Numbered from the stretch's first letter, positions 1-59,565 are shown. The stretch: 64,000 nucleotides of DNA from an uncultured virus (IMG/VR IMGVR_UViG_3300025894_001089) (IMGVR_UViG_3300025894_001089); one strand, 5' to 3'. The notes: generated by a model from the letters alone, not told the origin. Numbers and translations are program-made.

Positions 1-1
1 A

Positions 2-487
2 TTGCCCCTATTTGGATCATTTCCACTCGCGGCCGCGGCGTTCACATTTCCGATCGTTGTTGTTGCAACTGATTTGACTGTACGGTTAATTGGTAAACAA
101 GCAGGAAGAGCCGTTGTGGCTATGGCCATTATTCCAGCTATTGTGGCGTCGGTGCTAGTGCTATTAGCACTTGGTGACGAACACGCCTACAGAGTTGGAC
201 TTGCAAGTGGCACAGCCTATGCAATTGGAACAATGCTTGATGTATATGTATTCCAACACATTCGTGAAAAGTATACCGAAATGTGGTGGGCGGCACCAGC
301 AATTTCTACAGTTGTTGCCAATATCATCGACACCTATGCATTCTTCTATACAGCGTTCTATCCGGCACCTTGGGTACACGGCGTAGCGTTCAATAATACA
401 CTTACTAAAATTGTAGTAGGTCTTATTGTATTCTTACCAGCATACGGTATGTTATTATCGTATCTTAGGAATAGAGTTAAGTCTTAA
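2..487 (+). CDS. VUT family (YhhQ-like) queuosine-precursor transporter, 5' partial
   Basis: Hydrophobic; TFPIVVVATDLTVRLIG, GTMLDVYVFQ and ISTVVANIIDTYAFFYTAF match YhhQ/VUT family motifs. Confidence 0.8.
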   Translation: MPLFGSFPLAAAAFTFPIVVVATDLTVRLIGKQAGRAVVAMAIIPAIVASVLVLLALGDEHAYRVGLASGTAYAIGTMLDVYVFQHIREKYTEMWWAAPAISTVVANIIDTYAFFYTAFYPAPWVHGVAFNNTLTKIVVGLIVFLPAYGMLLSYLRNRVKS

Positions 488-558
488 CCACAAGGACGAA
501 ACCACTAAACCTCACCTAATATAAAAATATATTAGGCCCAATAAAACGGTTATTGGAC

Positions 559-588
559 AAAAAAGCAGAAGGAGACTTCTGCTTTTTT
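559..588 (+). terminator. Intrinsic terminator (probably bidirectional)
   Basis: AAAAAAGCAGAAG-gaga-CTTCTGCTTTTTT perfect hairpin with U tract. Confidence 0.85.
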
Positions 589-642
589 CTTGACTTTAAA
601 AAATATCAATGTTATTGTAAATATAACATTAGAAGGAATAAT

Positions 643-954
643 ATGACAGAAGAATATAAAAAACTAGATGAGAAGATCAAAGAGTTGAACAGTACACGAG
701 TCTATAAAAAAATTACTCCCAAAGGAGATTTGAGCTGGTATATTAAATGGTCATCTTCGGTTGTGATCCTATTGGCTGTAATGTGTCGCAGTGTTCCGGA
801 CGTTCCAAAAATATTTGATCTAGTATTGTCATTTCATGGCTGTGCCGGTTGGCTAGTTGTTGGAATGCTTTGGCATGATAGAGCATTGATTTGTTTAAAC
901 GGTGTTTTGCTTTTTGTACTTGGAAGTGGAATATTAACCTATATAGCCAGGTAA
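643..954 (+). CDS. Small membrane protein (about 3 TM); likely start at ATG 643
   Basis: AGAAGGA RBS before ATG 643; hydrophobic segments after KITPKGDLSWYIKW. Confidence 0.6.
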   Translation: MTEEYKKLDEKIKELNSTRVYKKITPKGDLSWYIKWSSSVVILLAVMCRSVPDVPKIFDLVLSFHGCAGWLVVGMLWHDRALICLNGVLLFVLGSGILTYIAR

Positions 955-961
955 TTACAAA

Positions 962-1408
962 ATGAAAGATAAATTTAAAAAACTTTATATTGACTGGGCA
1001 AGACGAGTTGCAGAACTTAGTCATGCCAAACGACTTCAAGTTGGCGCAGTGATTGTAAAAGATGATACTGTTATCAGTTACGGTTATAACGGTATGCCTA
1101 GTGGATGGAATAACGAATGCGAAGATTTAGTTTTCTTTAAAGATAAAAAACAGCTTACCCAGCCTCTATTAAAAACTAAACCAGAAGTGCTACATGCCGA
1201 ATCAAATGCAATAGCAAAATTAGCTAAATCAAATAATAGTGGGTTAGATGCTGATATCTTTATTACACACAGTCCTTGTGGTGAATGTGCTAAACTAATA
1301 CTACAAGCCGGTATACGTACTGTTTATTATGCTGAGAATTATCGTGATGATACAGGAATAAAATTTCTAAAGAAATCTAAAATCTCGGTTCAGCTACTCG
1401 ATAAATAA
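962..1408 (+). CDS. dCMP deaminase
   Basis: GYNGMPSG, HAESNAI and SPCGEC zinc-deaminase motifs. Confidence 0.92.
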   Translation: MKDKFKKLYIDWARRVAELSHAKRLQVGAVIVKDDTVISYGYNGMPSGWNNECEDLVFFKDKKQLTQPLLKTKPEVLHAESNAIAKLAKSNNSGLDADIFITHSPCGECAKLILQAGIRTVYYAENYRDDTGIKFLKKSKISVQLLDK

Positions 1409-1453
1409 CATTGAATACACCCACCCCAAAATAAATTATAGAAGGATAAATGC

Positions 1454-2302
1454 ATGGGCGTTAAAACTCTAACCTTCCATAATAAGTTGTTAACACTGGT
1501 TTATAGTTGTCAAGTTATAGGCATTGCCGGACTGATATACTACTGGGATCCTATCTACTTGTTATGGACCGCACTTGGTAAACTACTTTTTTATAGCTTT
1601 GGCGTAGAAATTGGTTTACACCGTTATCTATCACATCGTAGTTTTTCCATGGCCAAATGGAAAGAAAGAATACTCTTGGTATTGAGTATGTTTGCTTGTT
1701 ATGGAAGTACACTTGGATGGTGTGCTAATCATAGAGTTCATCATACCAATGCTGATAAAACAAAAGGTGATCCACACCCTAGTAAGCAATGGTTTAAAAC
1801 ATGGTTTTGGATTAATACAGAAAAGAATGTTACAATAAGTCCAACAGTAATTAAAGATCTACTCAAAGATCCATTCCATAAATGGATGAGAGAAAATTAC
1901 TTTAGAGTAGTAGTTGGTACAATAGTTCTAAGTGCATTGATATTTGGTCCAAAGTTTGCTATATACTTCTTTGTAGTTCCAGCGGCACTTGCCCAACTTA
2001 GCGGCGGATTAATAAATGTAATTTGTCATAAATGGGGATATCGCTCATATGAAACTACCGATCTAAGCAAGAATAATTTTCTAGTTAATGCATATGCATT
2101 GTTTGTGGGTGTTGGATTACATAACAACCATCATAAATTTCCTTGGGAACATAAAACACTAACAAAAGGAAAACGCATTTGGCATGAAGTGGATTGGGGC
2201 GGATGGTTTATTGAAAAATTCTTGTTAGAAAGTAATGGCACAGATTGGGGGAAACGCTCTGGGCCATCAACAAAACAAACAAGTAAAATGTTAATGGAGT
2301 AA
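1454..2302 (+). CDS. Membrane fatty-acid desaturase (delta-9/acyl-CoA type), copy 1
   Basis: His boxes GLHRYLSH, HRVHH, HNNHH; GDPHP; TM segments. Confidence 0.9.
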   Translation: MGVKTLTFHNKLLTLVYSCQVIGIAGLIYYWDPIYLLWTALGKLLFYSFGVEIGLHRYLSHRSFSMAKWKERILLVLSMFACYGSTLGWCANHRVHHTNADKTKGDPHPSKQWFKTWFWINTEKNVTISPTVIKDLLKDPFHKWMRENYFRVVVGTIVLSALIFGPKFAIYFFVVPAALAQLSGGLINVICHKWGYRSYETTDLSKNNFLVNAYALFVGVGLHNNHHKFPWEHKTLTKGKRIWHEVDWGGWFIEKFLLESNGTDWGKRSGPSTKQTSKMLME

Positions 2303-2304
2303 GA

Positions 2305-3135
2305 ATGGAACAGATAAGCAGTAAGTGGTTAGCCAGCTATCTTGGAGGGATTACTGGTGTATTTGGTAGTTTTGTAGTTTTTTGTGCAGACTATCATCAT
2401 TGGGATTGGTATTTAATAAGTTTTTTGTGGTGGGTTATTGCATGTAGATTGATTATGCAAACAGTTGGACTACACAAATATTGGGCACACAATAGTTTTG
2501 ACACTGGACCAATCCGTGAATGGATTTTAACATGGGGTTGTATACTATGTGGTACTGGTAGTCCATATAACTGGGCAGTGCATCACAGACATCACCATAA
2601 ACACACTGACACAGACAAAGATATTCATAGTCCTAATACTAATACTTTTACACAGTCGTTTTTTATAACATGGATGTTTAAACCAGACAAATGGTGGAGA
2701 GATAAGAAAATTTCACTAAAGCATAAAGATTTGCTGTCTAACAAAAAGGTCATGCATATACACAAGTATTATCATCATTATTGGTTTGCATTGATAATTG
2801 CAACATTGATAATTGATTGGCGTATAACACTATTCTTTGTACTTCAACCAGTTGGTTTGAATATGCTGATGTCTGGAATAAACAACCATTTAAGTCATAC
2901 AGATATAGTTCCAAAATCATACAGGAATTATGAATCAAAAGATAATAGTCATAATTTACCAGGCTGGACCAATTTACTGTTATTAGGCGAAGGATATCAT
3001 CATAATCATCATCACGCACCATGGAAGTACGACAACGCAGACAAGCCAGGAGAGTGGGATTTAAGCGGCTGGGTTATTCGTACGTTCTTTGATATACACC
3101 GCGGTAAACTAGGAAGCGATTACAAGAGGTATTAG
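2305..3135 (+). CDS. Membrane fatty-acid desaturase, copy 2
   Basis: GLHKYWAH, HRHHHKH, DIHSP, GEGYHHNHH. Confidence 0.9.
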   Translation: MEQISSKWLASYLGGITGVFGSFVVFCADYHHWDWYLISFLWWVIACRLIMQTVGLHKYWAHNSFDTGPIREWILTWGCILCGTGSPYNWAVHHRHHHKHTDTDKDIHSPNTNTFTQSFFITWMFKPDKWWRDKKISLKHKDLLSNKKVMHIHKYYHHYWFALIIATLIIDWRITLFFVLQPVGLNMLMSGINNHLSHTDIVPKSYRNYESKDNSHNLPGWTNLLLLGEGYHHNHHHAPWKYDNADKPGEWDLSGWVIRTFFDIHRGKLGSDYKRY

Positions 3136-3136
3136 A

Positions 3137-3949
3137 ATGCAATGGAAGTTAACATATTTTACGGGCTACATTGGTGCAATACTAGGTTTAGTATACACTG
3201 TCCAGGCTGACATTTGGCCTTTGTATGTAGCTAGTATAATATATTGGCTTCTCTTTTGTAGACTTATTTGTCAACTAATAGGATTACATAAGTATTGGAC
3301 ACACAGAAGTTTTTCAACAGGTCCAATACGCCATTTTATACTAGCATTTGGAAGTATACTATGTGGCACTGGTAGTCCGTACACATGGGCAGTGCATCAC
3401 AGACATCATCATAAACATGCTGATACAGAAAAAGATGTACACAGTCCAACACAGAATGGTTGGTTAAGCACAATACTAGGTTACTGGGTATTGAATCCAA
3501 CAGAATGGTGGTATGACAAAGGAATACAAGTAACACATAGAGACCTAGTTAAAGACAAACAGGTAATGCATGTTCACAAACATTACTGGAAATACTGGTA
3601 TGCCTTATTAGTTATTACAACATTAATAGATTGGCGTATTGCTTTGCTATTTGTAATTCAACCAATTGGGCTAAGTTTATTTGTACATGGGTGCAATAAT
3701 TTGTTTAGTCACACAACCAAGTTTCCAAAATCATATAGGAATTATGATTTACCTGACAACAGTAGAAATTTACCAATCTGGACAAACCTAATGTTACTAG
3801 GAGAAGGGTATCACAACAATCACCATAACAAACCTTGGGCATATGATAATGCAGACAAGCCAGGAGAATGGGATTTCAGTGCATTGGTAATTAAGTATGT
3901 ATTTGATATTCATCGCGGTAAACGTGGCTATGAATATAATAAAATTTAA
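3137..3949 (+). CDS. Membrane fatty-acid desaturase, copy 3 (close paralogue of copy 2)
   Basis: GLHKYWTH, HRHHHKH, DVHSP, GEGYHNNHH. Confidence 0.9.
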   Translation: MQWKLTYFTGYIGAILGLVYTVQADIWPLYVASIIYWLLFCRLICQLIGLHKYWTHRSFSTGPIRHFILAFGSILCGTGSPYTWAVHHRHHHKHADTEKDVHSPTQNGWLSTILGYWVLNPTEWWYDKGIQVTHRDLVKDKQVMHVHKHYWKYWYALLVITTLIDWRIALLFVIQPIGLSLFVHGCNNLFSHTTKFPKSYRNYDLPDNSRNLPIWTNLMLLGEGYHNNHHNKPWAYDNADKPGEWDFSALVIKYVFDIHRGKRGYEYNKI

Positions 3950-3961
3950 TAGGAGAATAAT

Positions 3962-4732
3962 ATGAATCCATATAATCAGACACTTTGGGTAGTATGGGGT
4001 AACCATCTACTAACAATTGGAGCAATACTATTCTTTTTTGAATGGTGGATGATTCCAGTTGCCTTTCTATCAGGGCATTTGTTTAGTGTGTTCAGTGAAA
4101 TAGGAATTCACAGATATTTTACACACAAAGCATTTACAGTTGAGTCCAGATGGAAAGAGCAGTTAATGAAAGTGTTTGCTTTTTTAACAGGACAAGGAGC
4201 AATACTAAGTTGGGTGACAGTGCATAGGCATCATCATGTTTACGAAGACCAAGAAGGTGATCCTCATAGTCCTAAGATATTTCCATATTGGAAGATCTAT
4301 TTAGGCTTGTTTCCAAAAACCTACAAATCAAATTTGGTAATGGATTTAATCAGGCACAAAGATAGAAGATATTTTGTATTTGAAAACAAATACTATTGGT
4401 TGATGTGGACTGCTCTATGGTTAGGAAGTTTTGCAATTAGTCCATATCTATTCTTTGTAATTGTTAGTGGCAGTGCAATGTGGTATGCTTTTACTAGTGT
4501 AGTTAATATATTTTTACATGATGAAGTAGTTGGCCATAAACCACACCAAGAACATGTAGCCACCAATAGTGGATGGTTGAACTGGTTAACTGGTGTTGGT
4601 TATCACAACAATCATCACAAGAATCCTAGAAGCTATACATACAACCTAGATGGAAAAGATCGAGACTGGATTGGTGCTATTATTAAATACGTTATAGCAG
4701 ACAAAGTAGAAGTTGAACAACAGAAAGCGTGA
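3962..4732 (+). CDS. Membrane fatty-acid desaturase, copy 4
   Basis: GIHRYFTH, HRHHH, GDPHSP, GYHNNHH; AGGAG RBS. Confidence 0.9.
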   Translation: MNPYNQTLWVVWGNHLLTIGAILFFFEWWMIPVAFLSGHLFSVFSEIGIHRYFTHKAFTVESRWKEQLMKVFAFLTGQGAILSWVTVHRHHHVYEDQEGDPHSPKIFPYWKIYLGLFPKTYKSNLVMDLIRHKDRRYFVFENKYYWLMWTALWLGSFAISPYLFFVIVSGSAMWYAFTSVVNIFLHDEVVGHKPHQEHVATNSGWLNWLTGVGYHNNHHKNPRSYTYNLDGKDRDWIGAIIKYVIADKVEVEQQKA

Positions 4733-4739
4733 GTACAAT

Positions 4740-5594
4740 ATGAAAATAGATCCAGACAAGTTTAAGCCAAGTTGGACCGGGCATAAAATTAAAGCATTGA
4801 TTGTTATGGCACACCTAGCATTCATTGGCTATTGTTTTTCAGCAGAATTTAATTGGTTGTTTGTACTCATTGGTGGACCTTTGTTATGGTTCTTTATTTC
4901 TAAGATGGGCATGGAAGTTGGTTTTCATAGATTGTTTTGCCATAAATCATTTTCAACTACACAATGGAAAGCAAGAATGCTACTGATACTTGGTACAATT
5001 TCAAGTGTAGGTAGCAGTCTAACTTGGGTAGCTACACACCGAGTACATCATAAACATGCAGATCATTTAGGTGATCCACAAAACAGTCGTAGAGATAACT
5101 CATGGTGGAAAAATTGGTTAACACTTTGGGACGACAATTGGAAATCCGAGCCGCTTATTATTAAAGATTTAATGCGTGATAAATGGCATCGTTATATACA
5201 CAAACACTATTTTAAATTGGTACTTGGTTATATCTCCACACTGGGCGTTATAAGCCTGGCAGTATCTAGTTGGTATCCTATTGTTGTATTGTGGGCTTTT
5301 CCTGTTATACTAAATTTCAATCTAGCAGGATTTTTAAATTCTCTATTTCATAACAACATAAATGGTTGGGGATTTTATAGAAATTATACTTCTGATGATG
5401 ATAGCAGAAACCATGCAGTACTAAATCTTCTTATGGCAGGTGCTGGAATGCACAACAATCATCATGGGGCTCCTGCTAGTTATACCTATAATACCAATAA
5501 CAAATGGTATGAAATAGACCCAACTGCAAAGTTTGTTAAGAAATTTTTAGCCACTGAAATTACACTACCAGACGGATCTAAAGAAAAAGTATAA
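4740..5594 (+). CDS. Membrane fatty-acid desaturase, copy 5 (likely start ATG 4740)
   Basis: GFHRLFCH, HRVHH, GDP, GMHNNHH. Confidence 0.9.
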   Translation: MKIDPDKFKPSWTGHKIKALIVMAHLAFIGYCFSAEFNWLFVLIGGPLLWFFISKMGMEVGFHRLFCHKSFSTTQWKARMLLILGTISSVGSSLTWVATHRVHHKHADHLGDPQNSRRDNSWWKNWLTLWDDNWKSEPLIIKDLMRDKWHRYIHKHYFKLVLGYISTLGVISLAVSSWYPIVVLWAFPVILNFNLAGFLNSLFHNNINGWGFYRNYTSDDDSRNHAVLNLLMAGAGMHNNHHGAPASYTYNTNNKWYEIDPTAKFVKKFLATEITLPDGSKEKV

Positions 5595-5641
5595 ACGACT
5601 CAATCTATAATTACTAGTATTAATCAACTTAGGAAATTTCA

Positions 5642-6340
5642 ATGACTGGTACATATAGAGCTGAACTAATACCCACGGCAGAAGTTCGCTCAAACAAAAA
5701 CCTACAAAAAAAATTACTTTCTATTATTACAGGCCGCAATCGGTTAATGGGTGCGTCGGTCACTGATAACTCTCATGCTGTCAGAGAGTTTGCAGGACTA
5801 TTGGTCGAAAAGACAAAGCAAGGTTTTGATTCTAGATTTCATACATGGGCATTAGCATATCACAATGATGAAACTGATCCATGTGGATTCTTTGTATGTG
5901 GTAGTATTCATGATTTACCAATTTGGACAATACAAAGTGTGAGTTTTGCCAATGCACAAAAAAGAAATGATTGGTCAAAAGGACATCCTTTTGTAACAAC
6001 TCTTGATGCACTTGGTGACAAGATGATCTCTGACAGAGTATATGATTTATTGTGGATGAATCCTGATCGTCCAGCAATACGTAAACAATGGAAAAGTGGT
6101 TTTGACATGATGCGTTACTGTCCAAGTTTTTACGATTCAGAAAAACAGCAATATAAATGGCATAGGTATATTGAAGGAGTAGTCAAACAAGGCGAAACTC
6201 ATCCTATTGAACAGTACCATAAACAAATACTACAAGATAGACCAGCACTGGTTGATGTTGCAATTAGACATTTTGTTTTAAAAAATGAATACAGACAAGA
6301 ATGGAATGCAGTGTCCGACTGGTGGCCCAATAATGACTAA
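5642..6340 (+). CDS. Hypothetical protein (possibly GNAT-like fold)
   Basis: 232-aa ORF with RBS; fold guess is weak. Confidence 0.45.
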   Translation: MTGTYRAELIPTAEVRSNKNLQKKLLSIITGRNRLMGASVTDNSHAVREFAGLLVEKTKQGFDSRFHTWALAYHNDETDPCGFFVCGSIHDLPIWTIQSVSFANAQKRNDWSKGHPFVTTLDALGDKMISDRVYDLLWMNPDRPAIRKQWKSGFDMMRYCPSFYDSEKQQYKWHRYIEGVVKQGETHPIEQYHKQILQDRPALVDVAIRHFVLKNEYRQEWNAVSDWWPNND

Positions 6341-6788
6341 GTTAGTTAATTACTATAGCTGGTTTGTTCTAGCAATGGTATTACTAATTGTTACCAATGT
6401 ATTAGGTCGTTACTTCTTTGATCTTAGATTTGATTTTGCAGTCGACGTGAGTTGGCAGTTGTATGGAATAATGATTATAATGGGTTGTAGTCATGCATTA
6501 TCAACAGACTCGCATATAAGAACTGACGTATACTGGAACAAATTCAGTGATAAAGTTAAAGCTCGTATTGATTTTGTAAGTTATCTAATTTTATTTTTTC
6601 CTGCTATCAGTATACTCACATACAAAAGTATTTTTGATACTATAAGAAGTGTAGCACAAAACGAAACAAGCAGTGCAACAATGGCTCAACTCATAGTATG
6701 GCCATTGAAGATAGGAATTACATTAGGATTAATATTATTACTGTATCAAGGTGCAGTAAACACAAGAAAGTGTTTTAAAAGATGTTAG
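6333..6788 (+). CDS. TRAP transporter small permease (DctQ-like)
   Basis: 4 TM; NVLGRYFF, HIRTDV, IVWPLK; precedes dctM; ATG 6333 overlaps the upstream stop. Confidence 0.88.
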   Translation: MTKLVNYYSWFVLAMVLLIVTNVLGRYFFDLRFDFAVDVSWQLYGIMIIMGCSHALSTDSHIRTDVYWNKFSDKVKARIDFVSYLILFFPAISILTYKSIFDTIRSVAQNETSSATMAQLIVWPLKIGITLGLILLLYQGAVNTRKCFKRC

Positions 6789-8161
6789 CCATTGTAATGT
6801 TAGTGGCAATGATTGCCGGCATATTTGTAGGTGTTCCAGTAGCATTTACTCTCTTATTTTTAGCACTAGGTTTTGGCTACATCACAATGGGAGAAAATGT
6901 ATTTGATTTAGCCTATTATAATTTAATAGGTGGGCTTAGTGACGAAGTGTTCATGGCAATACCAATGTTTATATTCATGGGTTATGTTGCTGAACGGGCA
7001 GGTTTGGTAGAAGGATTGTTTGACAGTCTTAAACGTATGCTAAGTGGAATCAAAGGAAGTTTGTACTATGTTGTTATTGTAATTGCTATTCTTATCAGTC
7101 TGGCTACAGGTGTAGTTGGTGCCAGTGTGACCTTACTGGGTATTATGGCCGCGCCGCACATGATGCGGTTGGGTTACGATCACAAATTAAGTGCTGGTGT
7201 AATTGCCGCCGGAGGATCAATGATTATTATTCCTCCAAGTGTTCCTTTAATTGTTATGGCACCAACAATGAATGTTAGTATTGTTGATCTATATGCGGCT
7301 GTAATGGGTCCAGGATTGATGATTGCTTTTATGTTTATGGTTTATTGTGCCTATCAAGTTAGACGATATCCTGAACTAGCACCAGCAACAGAACATGAAC
7401 CTGTTCCGTGGACCTTGTATACTAGATTAATACTTGATGTTTTTCCATTGGCTTTCTTAATAGCAGTTACATTAGGCAGTATGTTATTTGGACTAGCAAC
7501 CAGTACAGAAGCAGGATCATTTGGAGCCGCAGGTGCTCTAATACTTGCTCTTGCCAATAGAAGTTTAACCTGGGAAAGATTGCAAGAGGCTATGTTAAAA
7601 ACAACAAGCACAAGTGCCGTTGTTATGTTACTTGCTATAGCCTCAACTATTTTTGGTGCAGTTTTTACAGGATTGGGCGGGGACAATATTATTGTTGATG
7701 CTCTTAATAGTTTACCAATACCAACTTGGGCACTGGTAGGCACAATACTTGTATTGTGTCATATACTAGGCTGGCCGTTTGAATGGCCTGTAGTGGTACT
7801 GGTTTTTTTACCGATGTTTATGCCCATCCTGGTAAATAACAACGTCGACATGTTGTGGTTTGGAGCCGCACTAGGGATAGTGATACAAACGGCCTACCTA
7901 ACTCCTCCTGTTGCACTTACATCATATTATTTAAAACAAGTTGTTCCTTCCTGGGATTTAACTATGATATTTAAATCTATGATGCCTTTTATGTGGATTC
8001 AAGTTTTAGCAGTCTGCATATTATTCCTAACCCCTAGTATCGCCACCTGGTTTCCAAAATATTTGGACCATCAGAGGCAGGTACTAAATAATTCTGTTAC
8101 AGGAGAGAAACCTGTAGGAGAAATAGATTTCTTATCAAAGAGCAAGTCAAAATCAAATTAA
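6782..8161 (+). CDS. TRAP transporter large permease (DctM-like)
   Basis: GVPVAFTL, AIPMFIFMG, IIPPSVPLI, TAYLTPPVA; many TM helices. Confidence 0.93.
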   Translation: MLAIVMLVAMIAGIFVGVPVAFTLLFLALGFGYITMGENVFDLAYYNLIGGLSDEVFMAIPMFIFMGYVAERAGLVEGLFDSLKRMLSGIKGSLYYVVIVIAILISLATGVVGASVTLLGIMAAPHMMRLGYDHKLSAGVIAAGGSMIIIPPSVPLIVMAPTMNVSIVDLYAAVMGPGLMIAFMFMVYCAYQVRRYPELAPATEHEPVPWTLYTRLILDVFPLAFLIAVTLGSMLFGLATSTEAGSFGAAGALILALANRSLTWERLQEAMLKTTSTSAVVMLLAIASTIFGAVFTGLGGDNIIVDALNSLPIPTWALVGTILVLCHILGWPFEWPVVVLVFLPMFMPILVNNNVDMLWFGAALGIVIQTAYLTPPVALTSYYLKQVVPSWDLTMIFKSMMPFMWIQVLAVCILFLTPSIATWFPKYLDHQRQVLNNSVTGEKPVGEIDFLSKSKSKSN

Positions 8162-8175
8162 AGGAGATATTTTGG

Positions 8176-9267
8176 ATGAAAAAGACTTTAGTAGGAAGTA
8201 TTGTAGCTGGTGCATTAGCTTTGTTTTCAACAGGCGTACTAGCAGATGATACAAAAACTTTAAAAATTGCAAGTTCCTACCCAGCAGTAAGCACACTTAC
8301 TGATCAAGCAACTTTTATTGCAGATCGTGTTAAGACACTTACTGAAGGAAAGGTAATTATGGAATTTAAACCAGCTGGCGCATTAGTTCCAGCATTCCAA
8401 GTACTTGATGCAACAGCATCTGGTGCGGCTGACGGAGCATGGACTCAGTCATATTACTGGGTTGGTAAAGATAAAACTTTATCGTTATTCAACTCACCCT
8501 TAGGTGGACCATACGGTATGGACGGTATGGATTTCTTAGGCTGGATGTTCCACGGTGGCGGACTTGATCTATACAGAACTTTCTACAAGGATGTTTTAAA
8601 ATTAGATGTTGTTCCTTTTCCAGTTATGCCAGCACAGAATCAGCCATTAGGTTGGTTTCATCGCCCAATTAAAGATCTAGCAGATCTAAAAAACTTTAAA
8701 TGTCGTCAAACAGGTATTAACGTAGAACTGTATGCTCGTATGGGTATGCAGACTATTGGTATGCCAGGTGGTGAGATTGCCGCCGCAGGGCGTAAAGGTG
8801 TTATTAATTGTGCAGAATTTGTTGGTGGTTTAGAAGATCAACGCATGGGCTTCAGCAAAATTTGGAAGTATTACTATCTAAACAGTTTGCATGAGCATTC
8901 AAACACAGGCGATTTACTACTCAATGGTAAAGTATGGCGTAGCCTTTCAAAGCAACAGCAGACAGCAATTCGTTCTGCCGCTTATGAATCATATCTATGG
9001 TGGATGACTGACATGCAAGGTAAAAACGGTCAAGCACTAGCAGAAATGATTGAACAAGATGGAGTTAAAGTTATGAAAACTCCAGCAGATATCATTGAAG
9101 CAGAGTTAAAGACTATTGATGCTATGTTAGCTGAAGAGAGTGCAAAGAACCCTTGGTTTGCTAAAGTACTTGCTTCACAAAAAGCATGGGCAAAGAAAGT
9201 TGTACCATTTAAGAACGTTGCGTTTACACCTTATAACTATGCCGCAGATTACTACTGGGGCAATTAA
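8176..9267 (+). CDS. TRAP substrate-binding protein (DctP/TakP-like, alpha-keto acid/monocarboxylate type)
   Basis: Signal peptide; PAGALVPAFQVLDA, SYYWVGKD, GWFHRPIKDLADLK; AAGGAG RBS. Confidence 0.9.
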   Translation: MKKTLVGSIVAGALALFSTGVLADDTKTLKIASSYPAVSTLTDQATFIADRVKTLTEGKVIMEFKPAGALVPAFQVLDATASGAADGAWTQSYYWVGKDKTLSLFNSPLGGPYGMDGMDFLGWMFHGGGLDLYRTFYKDVLKLDVVPFPVMPAQNQPLGWFHRPIKDLADLKNFKCRQTGINVELYARMGMQTIGMPGGEIAAAGRKGVINCAEFVGGLEDQRMGFSKIWKYYYLNSLHEHSNTGDLLLNGKVWRSLSKQQQTAIRSAAYESYLWWMTDMQGKNGQALAEMIEQDGVKVMKTPADIIEAELKTIDAMLAEESAKNPWFAKVLASQKAWAKKVVPFKNVAFTPYNYAADYYWGN

Positions 9268-9291
9268 GTTTTAAACAAAACTAAGTTATTA

Positions 9292-9317
9292 GAAAAGGGC
9301 CGTTGGCCCTTTTCTTT
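9292..9317 (+). terminator. Intrinsic terminator
   Basis: GAAAAGGGCC-gtt-GGCCCTTTTC followed by T tract. Confidence 0.85.
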
Positions 9318-9341
9318 TGACTGAATTTTCTCACGTATAAA

Positions 9342-9476
9342 TAGTGTTAGCAACGCCCATTAGTGGACGTCGGATACCTTGGACGCTTTGGTAATCATAA
9401 ACCATTTATCTAGTTGACTAGTAACGCCCTTCCGTGTATAGTGTGAGAGTACTATTAGCATTAACTTTTAGGTATC
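9342..9476 (+). ncRNA. Candidate structured leader/ncRNA
   Basis: Follows TATAAATA (9336-9343); several hairpins plus a closing stem 9342-9350/9455-9463; no known family recognised. Confidence 0.3.
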
Positions 9477-9480
9477 ACGC

Positions 9481-10662
9481 ATGTTCACATCTCTTCAGCA
9501 CCCTGACCGATATGGTTATTATCAAATTGGTAATCGACGTACTTACAGTAAACTAGAGTTCGTTGATTATCTTAATCAATATCCTGCAGACTGGCATTGG
9601 GATTACAACGATGCATTCTTTAGCAGTTTTGATTGGGCAACAGAACCCGCAGAAGATATCAACACACTATATCGTAAGCGAGCAGAAGCACTACGAGAAC
9701 AATACGATTACGTTGTTCTCTTCTATTCGGGTGGATACGACAGTTCGAATATGCTATATGCATTTTTGGATAACGGAATTCCTATAGATGAAATCTGTAC
9801 GTACTATGCAAGTCAGGATACATTCACAGGACAAAAAATAGAACTTGATAATTTTACCTGGCAGAAACTAGATGCCATTGAAAAGAAATATCCCAATATA
9901 AAGATCACACGTTGGGATTACGGAGATGAATTTTTTAATTGGTCTGACAAAATTAAACAAGCAGGCGCCGGCGCTAACATGGTAGAAATGATAGCAGGAG
10001 GACTGATTTCTATTAACCGTATTGTATTAGATTTTGGTCATGAATATGTTCCACACTGGAAGAAGTTGCTCATGCAAGGCAAAAAGGTTGCATGGGTACA
10101 CGGTGCAGATAAACCTATGTTGCGATATCACAACGATACGTGGAAATTTAACTTTCATGATGGAATAATCAATGGTCGATTAACTCCAGTACGGCAAATA
10201 CTTGATCAAGGTGATATTGGAAATATTGAATTATTCTATTGGGCTCCCGATGCGACTTGTGCAAATATTATTATCAAACAATGTCATTTACTTAAAAATT
10301 ATTACACCCCACAAGCAAAGATAGACTTTTCTAAAATACCAGGTGTTAAAAAGCATAATATTGAATATGGTTGGGAAATAGATAATATCTCACTTGACTT
10401 TGTTAAACAACTATATCCAAGACTATTCTCTGGTAACTTGATTTTACCAAATGAAAATTGGTCAACGATTAAAAGTGCCCGCAGTATGTTTGGCAACAGA
10501 GATCATTGGTTCACACAATTAAACCATCATGCAGTAGATGAGTTTCATCGAATGTGGAAAGGAGCAAATAGCTCAATACATTCTCATTGGCATGATTGGT
10601 TCCACAACGGCACTATCGAAAGCGGTATTCGTAGTTGCATTACACAAGATTATATTATATGA
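9481..10662 (+). CDS. Adenine nucleotide alpha-hydrolase (PP-loop) superfamily protein
   Basis: VVLFYSGGYDSSNML PP-loop motif; HGADKP. Confidence 0.7.
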   Translation: MFTSLQHPDRYGYYQIGNRRTYSKLEFVDYLNQYPADWHWDYNDAFFSSFDWATEPAEDINTLYRKRAEALREQYDYVVLFYSGGYDSSNMLYAFLDNGIPIDEICTYYASQDTFTGQKIELDNFTWQKLDAIEKKYPNIKITRWDYGDEFFNWSDKIKQAGAGANMVEMIAGGLISINRIVLDFGHEYVPHWKKLLMQGKKVAWVHGADKPMLRYHNDTWKFNFHDGIINGRLTPVRQILDQGDIGNIELFYWAPDATCANIIIKQCHLLKNYYTPQAKIDFSKIPGVKKHNIEYGWEIDNISLDFVKQLYPRLFSGNLILPNENWSTIKSARSMFGNRDHWFTQLNHHAVDEFHRMWKGANSSIHSHWHDWFHNGTIESGIRSCITQDYII

Positions 10663-11927
10663 TTGAAGTTGTAATTGCATTAGCGGCCGGAATATGTGCA
10701 GGTGTGTTTGCTGGGTTAATACCCGGTGTTCCAATTATGATGGGCTTTATGCTTTTCTTGCCAATGGTCAGTGCTGATGCATTTTGTTTAAGTTTGTATG
10801 GAGTGGTAATGACTCTTGGTACACAGTTCTTTGGTAGCCAAGCAGTATTGTATTATCGTATTCCTGGGGAAACCAGCAGTTTCCCCACATTAATTGAAAG
10901 CAAAAACTTTACAACACCTGAACAACTACGTCATACTATACAAGTGACAACCTGGGGCAGTCTTGTTGCAACTATAATTGCATTGTTGCTATTATCGTTG
11001 GCTCTTACAAGTGGTGCATTAGATTGGGTCAAGCTCAGCATTGAATTTAGAGGTCTTGTGTTTGCATTGCTTATTGGTATGTGTATATTTGGTAATGGTC
11101 ATGCATTGGCAAATATTGTTATTCTTGGTCTAGCAAGTTTCTTTGCATTCTACGAAGACATTGCTCCGCTAACAGGATTTATGCCTACCTACTACTTTAG
11201 CAGTATGTTGTCTCTTATTATTATCTTCGCAATGCAGTTGGTATGGAATAGTTCTGACAGGTTTAAAACATACTCAGTTGGAACACATTCAACGTTTAAA
11301 CTACGCGAGTGGTTGCCTTTTTATGCAAAATATGGATCTCTTGGAACCGTGTTTGGACTGGTACCACAACTAGGTGCTACCTTTAGCAGTTATCTTACTT
11401 ACTCGTGGTTAAAGAAGAATAATGCCAGTCCGACACACAGAGTTGCCGGAGCAGAAACAGCGAATAACGGAGCAATAGTATTTCAATGGTTTCCGTTGTT
11501 TTTGTTTGGTATTCCAATTACAGGCAGTGAGATAATGCTAGTATCTCATTTTAATCAATTAGGACTTGATTTTAGTTTTCTTAAAGACTGGACTCAAGTT
11601 GCATGGCTTGCAGGATTGATCGCACTAGCAGGATTAATCTACACTAGAATTTGCTTAACGACGAATCAATTACTTTATAAAGTGGTTGGAAGAGCATTGA
11701 GCTCACGTTACCTCACAATCGCTATTGCGTTTGGAAGCATGTACTTATTTTATTGGGTTGGTAATTACACTGCTAAGTTTATGTTAATCCATTTAATGAT
11801 TTTCATTCCGGTCAGTTGGATAGTAGCTAAATTAAAAGTAAACCTATTAGCAGTTACTATTGGAATGATATTGATGAGTGAGATACTTCTTACTTTTTAT
11901 CAACTGTTACAAATTCACATTCTATAA
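10659..11927 (+). CDS. Tripartite tricarboxylate transporter TctA-like permease, divergent
   Basis: AGLIPG, YRIPGETSSFPT and VAGAETANNGA match TctA motifs; polytopic. Confidence 0.8.
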   Translation: MIEVVIALAAGICAGVFAGLIPGVPIMMGFMLFLPMVSADAFCLSLYGVVMTLGTQFFGSQAVLYYRIPGETSSFPTLIESKNFTTPEQLRHTIQVTTWGSLVATIIALLLLSLALTSGALDWVKLSIEFRGLVFALLIGMCIFGNGHALANIVILGLASFFAFYEDIAPLTGFMPTYYFSSMLSLIIIFAMQLVWNSSDRFKTYSVGTHSTFKLREWLPFYAKYGSLGTVFGLVPQLGATFSSYLTYSWLKKNNASPTHRVAGAETANNGAIVFQWFPLFLFGIPITGSEIMLVSHFNQLGLDFSFLKDWTQVAWLAGLIALAGLIYTRICLTTNQLLYKVVGRALSSRYLTIAIAFGSMYLFYWVGNYTAKFMLIHLMIFIPVSWIVAKLKVNLLAVTIGMILMSEILLTFYQLLQIHIL

Positions 11928-11938
11928 GGAGAATTAAA

Positions 11939-12769
11939 GTGAAAAAATTACTAATTGCCGCAACGATGTTGTGTTTGCCGTTTACAGCAAATGCCGCAGA
12001 TATTATTCCTACTGCAAACCTCAAAGGTCCACAAGGAAAAATAGTACAGAATATTATTGCTAATTCTGTAACAACAAAGTTTGTAGCAAAGCAAACAGGT
12101 GGATGTGGAGAAGCCGTAGCAACATTTGAATCTGCTACAGGTCCTGTTGCTATTATATGGAGTAACTCCATGTACAGGAATAGCAAGAAGGCAAACCAAA
12201 ATTGTATTATCAAACACGATGAAGCCAGATCTGTTATGCAGGCTCGTGTACCATACGACATTTGTGTTACAAAAGGAGTCAACCTAGTTAAAGGCACTGA
12301 CATGGCTTTTGGCAATAACAAGTTTAATCCACAAATTGACCAACTTGAAGATCTTAACACAAACGGATTGGGTATTGAGTTTAGAACTGTTACATATAGA
12401 GGCAGTGGCCCAGTAGCCGCCGCAGTTGGCAATGGAGATGTTAATATTGGAATTATTGCAACTCCAAGTGCAAAGAAAGCAATTGAAGCAGGAAGTATTC
12501 AATGCTTGTATTCAACAGGATCAGACCGTTACGGTCAACTGCCAATGTCAGAGTTTGTTCCTGGTACAAAACTTGCTAACTACAATCTTGGTATGATGGT
12601 GTTTACTCGTAACATGAGCAAAGCAGATCACGCCGCATTGGTTTCAGAACTTGAGCCACTTGAAGAAGCTCTAGTAATGCAAGACATGTTTGATGTCAAA
12701 GTTGATCTCGAAGATGCAGATACTAAAGCATTTATTGAAGAAGCAAAGAGCTTAGAAAACACTAACTAA
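11939..12769 (+). CDS. TctC/Bug-like periplasmic binding protein, divergent
   Basis: Signal peptide; VTYRGSGPVAAAVGNGDVNIG resembles TctC VPYKGGGPA...GGxVD; adjacent to tctA-like gene. Confidence 0.7.
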   Translation: MKKLLIAATMLCLPFTANAADIIPTANLKGPQGKIVQNIIANSVTTKFVAKQTGGCGEAVATFESATGPVAIIWSNSMYRNSKKANQNCIIKHDEARSVMQARVPYDICVTKGVNLVKGTDMAFGNNKFNPQIDQLEDLNTNGLGIEFRTVTYRGSGPVAAAVGNGDVNIGIIATPSAKKAIEAGSIQCLYSTGSDRYGQLPMSEFVPGTKLANYNLGMMVFTRNMSKADHAALVSELEPLEEALVMQDMFDVKVDLEDADTKAFIEEAKSLENTN

Positions 12770-27614: not shown

Positions 27615-27685
27615 ACTACTTTATTTTCTGAGGACTTGGTATTTGCTTAAATATCAAGCAATCCCTTTTGTTACAAGGAACCTCT

Positions 27686-28507
27686 ATGAAATTAAACTTA
27701 TCCCGCATTGAAGAACGAACAGAACTACTTGAAAATCACTTACTTTTCCAAGGCGACTGTCTAAAAACATTAGACCAATTACATATCTTTATGGAACACC
27801 ATGTATATGCTGTATGGGATTTCATGAGTCTTATTAAATCATTACAAATGCATATATGCCCAAGCACTGAGTGCTGGGTTCCTACAAAATGGGCACGTGC
27901 CGGATTAGCACGTATAATCAACGAAATTGTACTAGGTGAAGAAAGCGATATAGACATCGGTGGTGAAAGTAGTATTACACATCATGATTTATATGCACAA
28001 GCAATGTTAGAAGTGGGTTCAAACGGGAGACCATTTGAAGAATTCATTGAACGTGTACGCAATTTAGGATTTAATGACGCAATGGAAAATGCTCATGTTC
28101 CTCCAGCAAGTGCAAGTTTTATGAAGACAACATTTGGATTTATTGACACAAGAAAACCACATGTTATTGCCGGTGCATTTGCATTCGGCAGGGAAAAACT
28201 AATACCTACTATGTTCAGTAGTTTGTTAAGACAAATGAAGTTTACAGAACATGATGCTCCAAAGTTCCATTACTATTTAGAGAGGCATATTGAGCTAGAT
28301 GGCGACGAACATGGCCCTGCGGCAGTGCATCTAGTAGAAACCTTATGTGATAATGATCCAGTAAAAATACACGAAGCAGAAACATCAGCACTTGACGCCC
28401 TTGATGCTCGTATACGTTTATGGGATGCCGTGTATAGTATTATCAACGACCCTGATGAAAAATTTCTATATAGTGAGTTATTTTTAGCAGAAGGTATAGC
28501 CCCATAA
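27686..28507 (+). CDS. Heme-oxygenase-like diiron enzyme (DUF3050-like)
   Basis: FMEHHVYAVWDFMSL, INEIVLGEESD, HHDLY, YYLERHIELDGDEHGP. Confidence 0.8.
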   Translation: MKLNLSRIEERTELLENHLLFQGDCLKTLDQLHIFMEHHVYAVWDFMSLIKSLQMHICPSTECWVPTKWARAGLARIINEIVLGEESDIDIGGESSITHHDLYAQAMLEVGSNGRPFEEFIERVRNLGFNDAMENAHVPPASASFMKTTFGFIDTRKPHVIAGAFAFGREKLIPTMFSSLLRQMKFTEHDAPKFHYYLERHIELDGDEHGPAAVHLVETLCDNDPVKIHEAETSALDALDARIRLWDAVYSIINDPDEKFLYSELFLAEGIAP

Positions 28508-28508
28508 T

Positions 28509-29987
28509 ATGTCCGAAATCGTTTTATTAACAGGACTCGCAGTAACTGGTAGATTATATAGATCTATGGGCGGAGCTCAATTGGCTTGGTGGTTACGGCA
28601 ATCTAACTATGATGTACAAGTAATTGATTTTTTCTGTCAGATGAGCGACGAGGATTTACTTAAACTATACGCAAAGTTTATTACTAAAAGAACAAGAATA
28701 GTGGGCTTTGGAATCATGGGAACATACAATCCTATGATGGGACAACTAGTAAGATTTGTTGAAGAAATGATGCCCACACTTCGCAAGAAATTTCCACATG
28801 TTATATTTGTATGTGGCGGTGCTTGTGCCCAACTTGCAAGTAAACGTTACACACAAGGATCAGGTTTTGATTATTACTATTATGGATATGCAGAAAATAC
28901 TTTTCTAAGTTTATGTAATCAAGTTTTTAGAAAAGGTTCTCAGGTTGATGTAGAAAGAAAACTTGGTAATAGGATTATTAGGGAATCAACTATATGCCCC
29001 TTAGATGAATCATCGTTATTTACAATTAAAAGAGACGGGCATAGATGGCACGATAAAGATTGTATTATGCCTAACGAAAGTTTACCAATTGAAATAGGAA
29101 GAGGTTGTATTTTTAAATGTAAATTTTGTGCATTTCCACATGTTGGTAAAAAGAAAGGTGAGTATACAAGAACGTTACAACACCTAGAAGAAGAAATACT
29201 TAATAATTATTATAAGTTTGGTTCAACAAAATACTATTTGCTTGATGATACATTCAATGATGATGTTGATAAAATTAAAGATTTTAGCGACATGGTACAA
29301 CGTTTACCTTTTAAAATTCATATAGCAGGTTTTTGTAGAGCTGATTTACTTTGGGCTAATCCTGATACTCCACACTTACTTGAAGAAGCAGGAATGATTG
29401 GAACTTACTTTGGTATTGAAAGTTTTAACCAGTGTGCTTCAAAGTTTGTTGGTAAACCTTGGAGTTTCCAACATGCCCAAGACTACCTTATTAAGTTACG
29501 TCATGAGATATGGAAAGAACGTATAAGTTTTCGTACAAGTATGATTATTGGATTGCCTGGTGACGATCGCAAAGATTATATTAAATGGCACAGATGGTTT
29601 GTAGAAAATGAAATTCCAAACTGGAGTTGGCATCCTCTACATCTTGAACGTGATCTACGAGCCCAAAATAATAGTACTATTGACAAGGATGCTGAAAAAC
29701 ACGGATACACTTGGATAACTGAAAATAGTAAAGTTATGTGGAAGCACAAAGAGTCTGGTATGACATGGCGTGATGCAATGGAAATGTATACTGAATTTGA
29801 AGCACTTAAAGCACCATATCAAGTTAAACATTGCTGGGGAGCAATAGAAGAATTTAATTACCTACCACCAGATGCTGATCCTCAGGATCATAACTTTGTT
29901 AAAGTACGAACCCAGCATAACAAACAGTTAAATGAAGATCGCAAAACCTTCTTAAATGGTTATATTCGAAAGTTACTTGCCCTATAA
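28509..29987 (+). CDS. Radical SAM protein with N-terminal B12-binding-like domain
   Basis: EIGRGCIFKCKFC, DDTFN, FGIES, MIIGLPG. Confidence 0.88.
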   Translation: MSEIVLLTGLAVTGRLYRSMGGAQLAWWLRQSNYDVQVIDFFCQMSDEDLLKLYAKFITKRTRIVGFGIMGTYNPMMGQLVRFVEEMMPTLRKKFPHVIFVCGGACAQLASKRYTQGSGFDYYYYGYAENTFLSLCNQVFRKGSQVDVERKLGNRIIRESTICPLDESSLFTIKRDGHRWHDKDCIMPNESLPIEIGRGCIFKCKFCAFPHVGKKKGEYTRTLQHLEEEILNNYYKFGSTKYYLLDDTFNDDVDKIKDFSDMVQRLPFKIHIAGFCRADLLWANPDTPHLLEEAGMIGTYFGIESFNQCASKFVGKPWSFQHAQDYLIKLRHEIWKERISFRTSMIIGLPGDDRKDYIKWHRWFVENEIPNWSWHPLHLERDLRAQNNSTIDKDAEKHGYTWITENSKVMWKHKESGMTWRDAMEMYTEFEALKAPYQVKHCWGAIEEFNYLPPDADPQDHNFVKVRTQHNKQLNEDRKTFLNGYIRKLLAL

Positions 29988-57567: not shown

Positions 57568-57943
57568 CAATTTTGTTACACCACCAGATTTTGTGGAAGA
57601 TGATTACCATAGTGTTCTTCTAATAGATCCTGTTGAATCGCAAGTAATGGACATTTCATTACTATGTAAAAGTGTTGGGTCAGATTTTAATGTCTATGTA
57701 TACCTTGATCATTACAATGACTATAAATGGTTAGAGGAAGCATTTAACAGAAGTGATTCAGTACTTATTAATACAGTACCGAATTCTAGTTCAAAAGTTA
57801 AGGATAAACTAGTTGAACATCATAAATCACAACATTACGGTCCTAAACGTTTCTTTGATAACGATAGGCGTATTGAACTTCCAATTGAGTACTTTATAAA
57901 CTATGTCAAAAAACATTCAACAAGCCAATATGCTGATTTGTAA
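57560..57943 (+). CDS. Hypothetical phage protein
   Basis: VTPPD motif; 127 aa. Confidence 0.65.
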   Translation: MYSNFVTPPDFVEDDYHSVLLIDPVESQVMDISLLCKSVGSDFNVYVYLDHYNDYKWLEEAFNRSDSVLINTVPNSSSKVKDKLVEHHKSQHYGPKRFFDNDRRIELPIEYFINYVKKHSTSQYADL

Positions 57944-59156
57944 TTTTTGCGAGAAAGCAAAAAACGAAGTCAATAAACTTATAGTCGCAGATGGTGCGGC
58001 CATTTGTAATGAATGTATAGAGACTTGCTCAGGTATTATCACTAACGAAAAGTATACCGCAAGGTACAAAAAGTCGGGTATTTTTAAGAGTCTTGACCCG
58101 CTAAGAGTTAAAAAATACCTCGATGAGTTCATCATTGGCCAGGATAGTGCAAAAGAAGCTATCAGTGTAGCAATTATAAATCATTATAAAAGACTGTTCT
58201 ATAATACAACAATTGAGTTAGAAAAAAGCAATGTTCTATTACACGGTCCAACTGGTAATGGTAAAACAATGCTGGCTAGAATTGTGGCTAAGTTTTTAGA
58301 AGTGCCTTTTGTAGTATGTGATGCTACTACACTTACTGAAGCAGGTTATATAGGCGAGGACTCAAGCAGTGTCATTGAACGATTATTAATGGCCGCTGAT
58401 GGTGACCTTGAACATGCAGAACGTGGCATTATTTTTATTGACGAGATTGACAAGATTGGTCGTGTAGCAGATGCACACGGAAGTGTTGGGCGTGACGTCG
58501 GTGGCGAAGGTGTGCAACAAAGTTTACTAAAAATACTTGAAGGCGGAGATATAAAAGTATCTTATAACGACGGAAATCATAAAGAAGAAATTGACTTTAA
58601 TACCAAAGATGTACTTTTTATTGCCGCAGGTGCTTTTCCTGATTTACAAAAGATAGCATCTAATAATGCAAATAAAGGATCAACAATAGGATTCGCATCA
58701 ACGATTCCGGATCCTAATCAAGTAGTAACTCCAAAGATAACAGATTTTGTGCAATACGGAATGATACCTGAGTTCATGGGACGGTTTCCTATTACAATAC
58801 AAGTTAAAGAATTAACTGACCACGAAATGCGTCGAGTGCTAACTGAGCCTAGAAACAATCTTATCAAACAATATTTTTTCTATTTTGATGTTGACGGTGT
58901 TAAGTTAGAATTTAGCCATGATGCTATTGATGCTGTTATAGAATTAACTGCTAAAGAAAAAATTGGAGCCAGAGGACTTCGTGCAATCATTGAAAAAGTA
59001 TTGCACCCACATATGTTCAATTTGAGAAATTTAAAAAATAGTAACGTAAAGAAACTAACTATTACAGCCGACACAGTATTAAAACAACAACAACCAATAC
59101 TTGAATACCACGACGAAAGGGGAATAGAAAATGACACAATTGAGCTTGGATCTTAG
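57903..59156 (+). CDS. clpX: ATP-dependent Clp protease ATP-binding subunit ClpX
   Basis: Zn finger CNFC...CNEC, GPTGNGKT, TEAGYIGED, IDEIDKI, RDVGGEGVQQ, IGF loop, GARGLR. Confidence 0.95.
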   Translation: MSKNIQQANMLICNFCEKAKNEVNKLIVADGAAICNECIETCSGIITNEKYTARYKKSGIFKSLDPLRVKKYLDEFIIGQDSAKEAISVAIINHYKRLFYNTTIELEKSNVLLHGPTGNGKTMLARIVAKFLEVPFVVCDATTLTEAGYIGEDSSSVIERLLMAADGDLEHAERGIIFIDEIDKIGRVADAHGSVGRDVGGEGVQQSLLKILEGGDIKVSYNDGNHKEEIDFNTKDVLFIAAGAFPDLQKIASNNANKGSTIGFASTIPDPNQVVTPKITDFVQYGMIPEFMGRFPITIQVKELTDHEMRRVLTEPRNNLIKQYFFYFDVDGVKLEFSHDAIDAVIELTAKEKIGARGLRAIIEKVLHPHMFNLRNLKNSNVKKLTITADTVLKQQQPILEYHDERGIENDTIELGS

Positions 59157-59547: not shown

Positions 59548-59565
59548 ATAATTTTGTAGAAGCTC

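Follow-up and report, generated by a model that had tools for sequence, protein, structure and literature searches.

A five-gene array of divergent membrane fatty-acid desaturases in a large uncultured phage

The uncultured virus IMGVR_UViG_3300025894_001089 (IMG/VR) encodes an array of five tandem membrane fatty-acid desaturases at positions 1,454 to 5,594 of a 64,000-nucleotide stretch, here termed the window, which is the whole stretch of DNA that was analyzed. The five genes are intact, belong to one family and retain its metal ligands. They share a history of old paralogues within a virus-only clade and are part of a cassette that is conserved in other viral contigs. With slightly better than even confidence, we read them as five non-redundant, active desaturases of a virus-specific radiation that would retailor acyl chains in the infected cell. 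Within this reading we infer enzymatic activity, an electron supply from the host, differing specificities and the form of the substrate, which could be a phospholipid or a chain bound to CoA or acyl carrier protein (ACP).

Genes, family and paralogue history

All five genes lie on the plus strand. Copy 1 (1454-2302, 282 aa) carries the histidine boxes HRYLSH, HRVHH and HNNHH and an NxxxH motif at residue 188. The corresponding boxes are HKYWAH, HRHHH and HHNHH in copy 2 (2305-3135, 276 aa), HKYWTH, HRHHH and HNNHH in copy 3 (3137-3949, 270 aa) and HRYFTH, HRHHH and HNNHH in copy 4 (3962-4732, 256 aa). Copy 5 starts at a TTG (4713-5594, 293 aa) or an ATG (4740-5594, 284 aa) and has HRLFCH, HRVHH and HNNHH. 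Copies 1-4 are separated by 2, 1 and 12 nt, and copies 4 and 5 overlap (TTG start) or are 7 nt apart (ATG start). A Shine-Dalgarno-like site is located 5' of every ATG. Promoter and terminator scans over positions 1-9500 gave no excess over shuffled sequences (28 vs 39.1 expected and 7 vs 5.1 expected, respectively), so the boundaries of the putative operon are set by gene spacing alone.

All five proteins pass the Pfam model PF00487 (FA_desaturase) with 51.0, 51.2, 62.2, 63.2 and 66.0 bits (gathering cut-off 29.7; E 2.2e-13, 1.9e-13, 8.6e-17, 4.2e-17 and 5.8e-18 for copies 1 to 5), and the matches recur in a six-frame search of the complete virus record. The three boxes together contain eight histidines, and each of them is invariant across the copies (H56, H61, H93, H96, H97, H223, H226 and H227 in copy 1 numbering). 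Equally invariant are an asparagine and a histidine four residues apart in the second and last hydrophobic hairpin, which presumably correspond to the extra His/Asn ligands of SCD1. In a Kyte-Doolittle scan, each copy is hydrophobic from about residue 7 to 58 and from about 148 to 200. Pairwise identities are 27-37%, except for copies 2 and 3, which are 57-58% identical. The original prediction, a model's reading of the window, had described five consecutive, closely spaced genes with three His boxes each, divergent except for copies 2 and 3, and these features hold.

A profile built from the five copies aligns best with solved structures of SCD1 (4zyo, E 5.4e-25; 4ymk, E 7.1e-25), followed by AlkB (8f6t, E 6.3e-7). 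The SCD1 alignment spans profile positions 19-271, with an identity of about 25-30% at most. Against the DesA equivalog of NCBIfam (NF049918) the copies score 31.8-65.4 bits, far under the curated cut-off of 400. A DesA identity was thus rejected, and no specific name is assignable. In a library of 1.84 billion proteins the profile retrieved 9,194 proteins at E <= 1e-3, 593 of which reach E <= 1e-30, and 139 of the best 150 matches are 240-300 aa in size. The SCD1 match, the sub-threshold DesA score and these small relatives together lead us to class the five copies, as judged from sequence, as small SCD/DesC-type 'first' (Delta9-family) desaturases. The third His box is HxxHH in all five and QxxHH in none; no Delta12-like member is evident. 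The class assignment leaves the bond position free, as Delta9 or any other regiospecificity is not readable from a desaturase sequence. Insect SCD-type enzymes cover several double-bond positions, and family membership does not fix the position.

Among distant relatives, four single polypeptides fuse two divergent desaturase domains (P0034, P0037, P0074 and the N-truncated P0114). The halves are 34-48% identical when compared by BLAST, and the His boxes are intact in both. By analogy, such fusions hint that desaturase paralogues can work as pairs.

Viral relatives were collected by a pattern scan of IMG/VR, which yielded 114 confirmed stretches and, from these, 79 loci for analysis. Three trees were built, from 150 viral-locus sequences including the window's five (FastTree), from 231 viral and cellular rows (FastTree) and from 68 rows (IQ-TREE 'quick', LG+C20). 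The five copies take four separately supported placements in all three. Copy 1 has orthologues in three loci (L006_7917, 66% identity; L008_7920; L009_4474), copy 4 in two (L006_8774, 64%; L008_8810, 67%; support 100) and copy 5 in one (L006_9583, 52%; support 99-100). Copies 2 and 3 are sisters (support 100) within a 12-row clade (support 99) that they share with the ACP-adjacent desaturases of loci L073 and L078, and neither the trees nor the synteny of L006 and L008 revealed an orthologue of this pair in those two loci. The gene order in L006 is Vut_1, dCMP deaminase, Des1, Des4, Des5, ORF6, TctA, TctC-like and U393, and the order in L008 starts with dCMP deaminase, Des1, Des4 and ORF6. An approximately unbiased (AU) test rejected the five copies as a single clade (log-likelihood difference 511, p 0.00036). 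From the trees, the synteny and the AU test we conclude that the set is old, with four lineages of which three (copies 1, 4 and 5) persist as separate orthologues, and that only the 2/3 duplication is recent. The GC content of the array (0.36-0.37) equals that of the rest of the window, which indicates that the desaturases are long resident in the phage.

The cellular relatives comprise 80 loci, the best among 548 stretches confirmed by tblastn. Their sources include Bradyrhizobium, Chthoniobacterales and Flavobacteriia. The cellular desaturases are 26-38% identical, occur as a single copy in 79 of the 80 loci and are mostly 300-400 aa long. The desaturases of the viral clade are small (about 245-290 aa). 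On the 231-row tree only 6 changes of the viral/cell label are needed. All five copies fall into a virus-only clade of 92 rows in FastTree (support 89) and of 35 rows in IQ-TREE (SH-aLRT 95). The viral half of the combined tree has 150 rows, of which 147 are viral and three come from contigs of metagenome-assembled genomes (MAGs). On these trees, repeated capture from hosts is argued against by the virus-only clade and by the mere 6 viral/cell switches.

Arrays in other viral contigs and the genes beside them

A copy-number survey of related phage contigs, which the original prediction had suggested, indicates that arrays recur. Counted by profile within the fetched stretches of <= 16.8 kb, 45 of the 79 viral loci have 2-10 copies: 28 loci carry two, nine carry three and eight carry four to ten, and the remaining 34 have one. 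The largest arrays have 10 copies (L025), 9 copies (L026) and 7 copies each (L012, L019 and L072). These counts include near-copies (L025/L026, L059/L060 and L034/36/37) and two loci from one contig (L029 and L042). Box 1 and two HxxHH boxes are kept in 160 of the 172 viral-locus homologues, the window's five included. Descriptions of phage desaturase arrays with 7-10 copies, or with embedded ACP and ketosynthase genes, were not found in the literature searched, in which coverage of subscription journals is incomplete.

Deposited phage genomes yielded few relatives. Copy 5 matches 3 of 50,697 phage records at E <= 1e-5, and no cyanophage record is among them. The only convincing match is Pelagibacter phage Mosig (MT647606.1; 31.6% identity, E 4e-17), whose desaturase gene sits beside an Asp_Arg_Hydrox gene, TauD, an N-acetyltransferase and radical-SAM-like genes. 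Two records labelled 'Acinetobacter phage MD-2021a' were discarded as examples of cultured phages. The locus inspected in one of them resembles bacterial chromosome, with a 390-aa desaturase among trpB/trpC, btuB, baeSR and aidB (locus L174, CAKLQH020000002.1 49249-61869).

Genes in or beside the arrays were identified by Pfam in 150 of 252 neighboring open reading frames (ORFs; 15 of 25 selected loci) and in the remaining loci by hidden Markov models (HMMs) built from those seeds. They encode ACP, ketosynthase, 4'-phosphopantetheinyl transferase (PPTase), ATP-grasp, Rieske, cupin, B12-radical-SAM and Asp/Arg-type hydroxylase proteins. Within 8 kb flanks of the 79 viral loci versus 6 kb flanks of the 80 cellular loci, with viral HMM seeds and without dereplication of loci, the counts are 37 vs 1 for the hydroxylase, 12 vs 0 for ACP, 12 vs 1 for ketosynthase, 9 (8-9) vs 0 for B12-radical-SAM, 7 vs 0 for U393 and 5 vs 0 for PPTase. 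Ketosynthase genes occur in 7 of 8 loci with at least four desaturase copies and in 0 of 34 single-copy loci. Ketosynthase and ACP genes stand between the desaturase genes of L025, L026 and L019, and ACP genes abut the desaturases of L073 and L078. An AMP-binding gene was seen once, right after the desaturase pair of L010, and a rubrerythrin gene once, at the L025 array.

The ACP, ketosynthase, PPTase and AMP-ligase genes at other viral arrays fit a multi-step acyl-tailoring role. Auxiliary genes of phages cluster in islands, so proximity to an array need not mean one pathway. According to PMC7029224, the hydroxylase belongs to the core genes of pelagimyophages, and its association with desaturases may therefore reflect taxonomy rather than function.

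The phage record around the array

The virus record in IMG/VR is 228,348 bp long, and the window spans its bases 12782-76781. CheckV puts the completeness of the record at 65%, and no end repeats were found in it. The record holds exactly five desaturase matches. PHROGs in the window include DnaB, primase, ribonucleotide reductase (RNR), tail and exonuclease families, and the phage context given in the original prediction is thereby confirmed. The record also encodes class I RNR, PolB, thymidylate synthase, dihydrofolate reductase, ClpP/X/S/B and many auxiliary genes. PolB is nearest to that of giant myoviruses of Alphaproteobacteria (Sinorhizobium phage Phosso, 50%; Agrobacterium phage Atu_ph07, 46%). 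No tRNAs were found in the window.

Directly downstream of the array lies ORF6 (5642-6340, plus strand), which has no Pfam match even at E 10. Its AlphaFold2 (AF2) model, built from a 5-row alignment (mean pLDDT 73.9), gave 297 Foldseek matches in the PDB at E <= 0.001, and those listed are GNAT-fold acetyl- and acyltransferases, among them the acyl-homoserine lactone synthase BjaI. ORF6 is thus predicted to adopt the GNAT fold of the acyl/acetyltransferase superfamily. The gene is also directly downstream of the array in the close relatives L006 and L008, and weak homologues (E 1e-7) abut the two-desaturase arrays of L042 and L055.

U393 (9481-10662, plus strand, 393 aa) is tentatively tied to the array, as homologues lie <= 8 kb from arrays in seven loci (L006, L007, L008, L012, L059, L060 and L072). 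Its SGGxDS sequence, invariant in 6 homologues, is presumably a PP-loop motif. The AF2 model (pLDDT 64) has no fold match at E <= 0.001; the listed Foldseek matches are almost all PP-loop enzymes, but they are weak (best E 2e-3). From these fold matches and the motif, U393 is probably a PP-loop ATP pyrophosphatase of the adenylating or amide-forming type. A B12-binding radical SAM enzyme (28509-29987, plus strand; Pfam Radical_SAM and B12-binding) is encoded 23 kb from the array, and an association is possible and weak. It follows a DUF3050/haem-oxygenase-like protein (both within 27668-29987).

Several transport genes surround the cassette. A complete TRAP transporter (DctQ, DctM and DctP; 6285-9267) is encoded right after it, and further genes for two DctP, two TctA and a TctC-like protein lie at window 10635-12769 and at record 100453-103790 and 182272-183300. 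A TctA/TctC pair is found in synteny with the array in both L006 and L008, and a TctC gene is near the L059 array. Just upstream of the cassette is a Vut_1 (YhhQ-like) transporter (window 2-487), and genes for GTP cyclohydrolase I and PTPS (QueD-like) are found at record 169574-172546. Together, these three suggest a 7-deazaguanine/queuosine-precursor pathway, and U393 or the radical SAM genes of the window might serve that pathway rather than lipid tailoring. Two small DUF6552 membrane proteins are also encoded (window 553-954; record 156246-156479). The first, absent in L006 and L008, sits between Vut_1 and the dCMP deaminase, upstream of the array.

As the original prediction had noted, no ACP or acyl ligase occurs among the 80 window ORFs scanned. 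Outside the window, the record has one PP-binding ACP with a DSL site (record 214676-214930, minus strand), which is 196 kb away from the array when the record is taken as linear. It presumably resembles housekeeping AcpP. Its identity to array-linked ACPs is 31-34%, which is unremarkable for ACPs. The ACP gene lies beside genes that look structural and a run of six radical-SAM paralogues, and this neighborhood shares no families with the array loci. Among the 288 record ORFs of at least 60 aa, Pfam searches detected no phage-encoded electron donor (ferredoxin, flavodoxin, cytochrome b5, rubredoxin); a glutaredoxin encoded next to RNR is the sole redoxin. Ketosynthase, PPTase and AMP-ligase are likewise absent from these ORFs by Pfam (AMP-binding also by an HMM seeded from L010), and thioesterase and ferritin families have no Pfam match in the record. 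Alpha/beta-hydrolase and Lipase_3 genes are present 60-80 kb from the array. Auxiliary genes that also relate to lipids lie 74-79 kb from it and encode a protein with a malonyl-CoA decarboxylase C-terminal domain (record 92057-92653) and a class-3 lipase (96433-97233).

The radical-SAM block is a second paralogue array in this phage. It comprises six tandem genes (record 203022-211181, minus strand), five with radical SAM Pfam matches and two of those with SPASM, and it adjoins an FeS-assembly protein near the ACP. Relatives of these genes are found near desaturases in L027, L043, L084 and L011. The phage also encodes an unusually full proteostasis set of ClpX-like, Hsp20, ClpS, ClpP, DnaJ and ClpB-like AAA+ proteins (window 57903-60513; record 91467-92060 and 138880-142154), alongside IF-1, peptide deformylase and a PTH2 domain protein.

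Readings of the array and known systems

Under the reading that we favor, the five genes would be co-expressed from a single, closely spaced operon and encode membrane di-iron acyl desaturases of the SCD1/DesC type. The enzymes would insert into the host inner membrane during infection, draw electrons from a host donor of the ferredoxin or flavodoxin type and introduce double bonds, with the copies differing in bond position, chain length or acyl carrier. The acyl-lipid pool of the infected cell would then be retailored in several ways at once. That the copies do not represent simple dosage is suggested by their ancient split into four lineages and by the retention of three of these as orthologues in related phages. 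Several points weigh against this reading. Differing specificity is deduced solely from the age and retention of the lineages, and activity is assumed across a viral clade with no characterized member. The trees, made with FastTree and 'quick' IQ-TREE, are unrooted and have many long branches, and the cellular sample, drawn from the top of its match list, is biased. Three MAG-contig rows (two from L085, one from L086) lie inside the viral half of the tree; only 4 of the 22 ORFs next to them match PHROGs, none of which has an assigned function. For copies 2 and 3, a simple duplication is the apparent origin, and dosage fits that pair. Finally, L008 has two copies and L006 three, so the full set of five is not obligatory.

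A different proposal, which we consider rather unlikely, is a thiotemplated pathway in which the chain is carried on the phage ACP and, with ORF6 and U393, would become a dedicated, probably amide-linked, unsaturated acyl product in place of bulk membrane remodelling. The enrichment of ACP, ketosynthase and PPTase genes near viral desaturases speaks for it, as do the ketosynthase and ACP genes inside three arrays, the bias of ketosynthases towards loci with many copies, the AMP-binding and rubrerythrin genes of L010 and L025 and the clade that copies 2 and 3 share with ACP-abutting desaturases. The record itself contributes its ACP with the DSL site, the GNAT fold of ORF6 and the SGGxDS sequence of U393, and published polyyne systems combine a ligase, an ACP, three non-redundant desaturases and a thioesterase (PMC9828172). 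This proposal is opposed by the missing ketosynthase, PPTase and AMP-ligase in the record, by an ACP that is remote, only 31-34% identical to array-linked ACPs and without shared neighbors, and by third boxes that are all HxxHH with no Delta12-like member evident. The enrichment itself is weakened by phage auxiliary islands, redundant loci and viral HMM seeds. In a more specific version, which we regard as unlikely, the array would be the desaturating core of a phage-owned lipid module, with five paralogues desaturating ACP-borne chains at several positions and U393 and ORF6 coupling the product to an amine. Other phages, with arrays of 7-10 copies accompanied by ketosynthase, ACP and PPTase, would then carry fuller versions of the same system. 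We know of no such unsaturated amide-linked lipid or signal from any 'bacterium-free virus'. The original prediction had proposed multi-step lipid tailoring that might extend to acetylenation. The old retained lineages and the biosynthetic genes at other viral arrays favor the tailoring, whereas acetylenation or a polyyne product has no specific support.

The interpretation published for similar phage genes is that all copies are Delta9 enzymes, repeatedly acquired from hosts, that raise membrane fluidity (cold and salt tolerance) mainly by dosage. It draws on 12 viral fatty acid desaturases (vFADs) modelled on SCD1 (4ZYO), for 11 of which Delta9 was inferred (PMC7300359), and SCD1 is also the closest solved relative of the array here. 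We judge it improbable for this phage. Dosage predicts near-identical copies, and the recent 2/3 duplicate is the only pair that it fits well; identity among the four lineages is 27-37%, and three of them persist as orthologues of their own. Repeated capture predicts interleaving with cellular sequences and is at odds with the virus-only clade, the 6 switches on 231 rows and an array GC that equals phage GC. Similar arrays occur in many other viral contigs, and regiospecificity is not fixable from sequence alone. A last alternative, which we practically dismiss, is that the contig is cellular or mis-assembled, which the original prediction had itself named as a refutation, or that the genes are decaying. 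The CheckV completeness of 65% and the lack of detected end repeats would be compatible with an artefact. It is contradicted by phage replication, nucleotide-metabolism and tail genes throughout the record, by the cassette of dCMP deaminase, Des1, Des4 and ORF6 that recurs in the independent viral contigs of L006, L007 and L008, and by open frames and intact ligands in all copies. A cellular or chimeric origin of the record is thus very unlikely.

Desaturase genes of phages tend to be annotated as lone auxiliary genes that maintain the fluidity of the host membrane. Should arrays of old and different paralogues prove typical of large phages, they would represent a diversified, virus-evolved lipid-tailoring toolkit that was not borrowed from hosts, a view that is stronger where arrays sit with carrier protein and ketosynthase genes. 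If true, this would change the annotation of viral lipid genes in metagenomes, imply undiscovered unsaturated lipids that form solely during infection and supply a set of compact (about 260 aa) desaturases, possibly with new regiospecificities.

The phage proteins share with SCD1 (4ZYO, 4YMK) the same three His boxes and the NxxxH motif in the last hydrophobic hairpin. They differ in their size of 256-293 aa without terminal extensions, and acyl-CoA use and Delta9 specificity, both properties of SCD1, may or may not apply to them.

Polyyne systems consist of a ligase, an ACP, three non-redundant desaturases and a thioesterase, with a ferritin or rubredoxin helper (Kim, Ishida, Hertweck 2022, PMC9828172). 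Compared by gene content, polyyne and alkyne cassettes (the cay/pgn triad and JamABC) resemble the phage array in having several divergent membrane desaturases side by side. Related phage arrays further share ACP and, at single loci, an AMP-binding gene (L010) or rubrerythrin (L025). The record here differs, as it lacks an acyl-AMP ligase, an adjacent ACP, a thioesterase and a rubredoxin or ferritin helper. Polyyne desaturases are expected as at least three non-redundant members that include JamB-like and Delta12-like (QxxHH) enzymes; by motifs, the four divergent lineages here have HxxHH boxes throughout. These comparisons give no specific support to the polyyne and acetylenation analogy drawn in the original prediction.

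Other phages carry simpler versions. Mosig differs in having a single desaturase copy in a T4-like 141 kb genome, and it is the cultured phage with the simplest version. In freshwater pelagimyophages, fabF is reported together with a gene for stearoyl-CoA desaturase (Zaragoza-Solas et al. 2020, PMC7029224). Cyanophages are alike in encoding Delta9-type lipid desaturases as helper genes (Roitman et al. 2018, PMC5776448), but the words 'copies' and 'tandem' are absent from the text of that article.

The closest counterparts are phages from cryopeg brine. Twelve vFADs were reported in four viral populations, and all of those from cryopeg belong to just two viruses, each with five copies (Zhong et al. 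2020, PMC7300359). The vFADs formed clades without microbial FADs, were modelled on 4ZYO and were read as host-acquired Delta9 fluidity genes (PMC7300359). The two cryopeg phages were later extended to 222 kb (circular) and 230 kb, with predicted Pseudomonas hosts, and metatranscriptomes indicated low-level FAD transcription in the two five-FAD phages (Zhong et al. 2023, PMC10405475). The phage studied here is alike in its five FADs, a 228 kb record vs genomes of 222-230 kb, three His boxes, the SCD1 type and the lack of microbial clade members, and its array lies on a viral record amid viral hallmark genes, as expected of vFADs. A set of five desaturases in a phage of this size is already published, and the suggestion in the original prediction of an undescribed system does not stand. 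The differences lie in history and context. The authors of the cryopeg work propose repeated acquisition from hosts and a Delta9 fluidity role, whereas the copies here resolve into four lineages that are old within viruses and have orthologous genes in further phages, and the array adds conserved neighbors with predicted GNAT and PP-loop folds.

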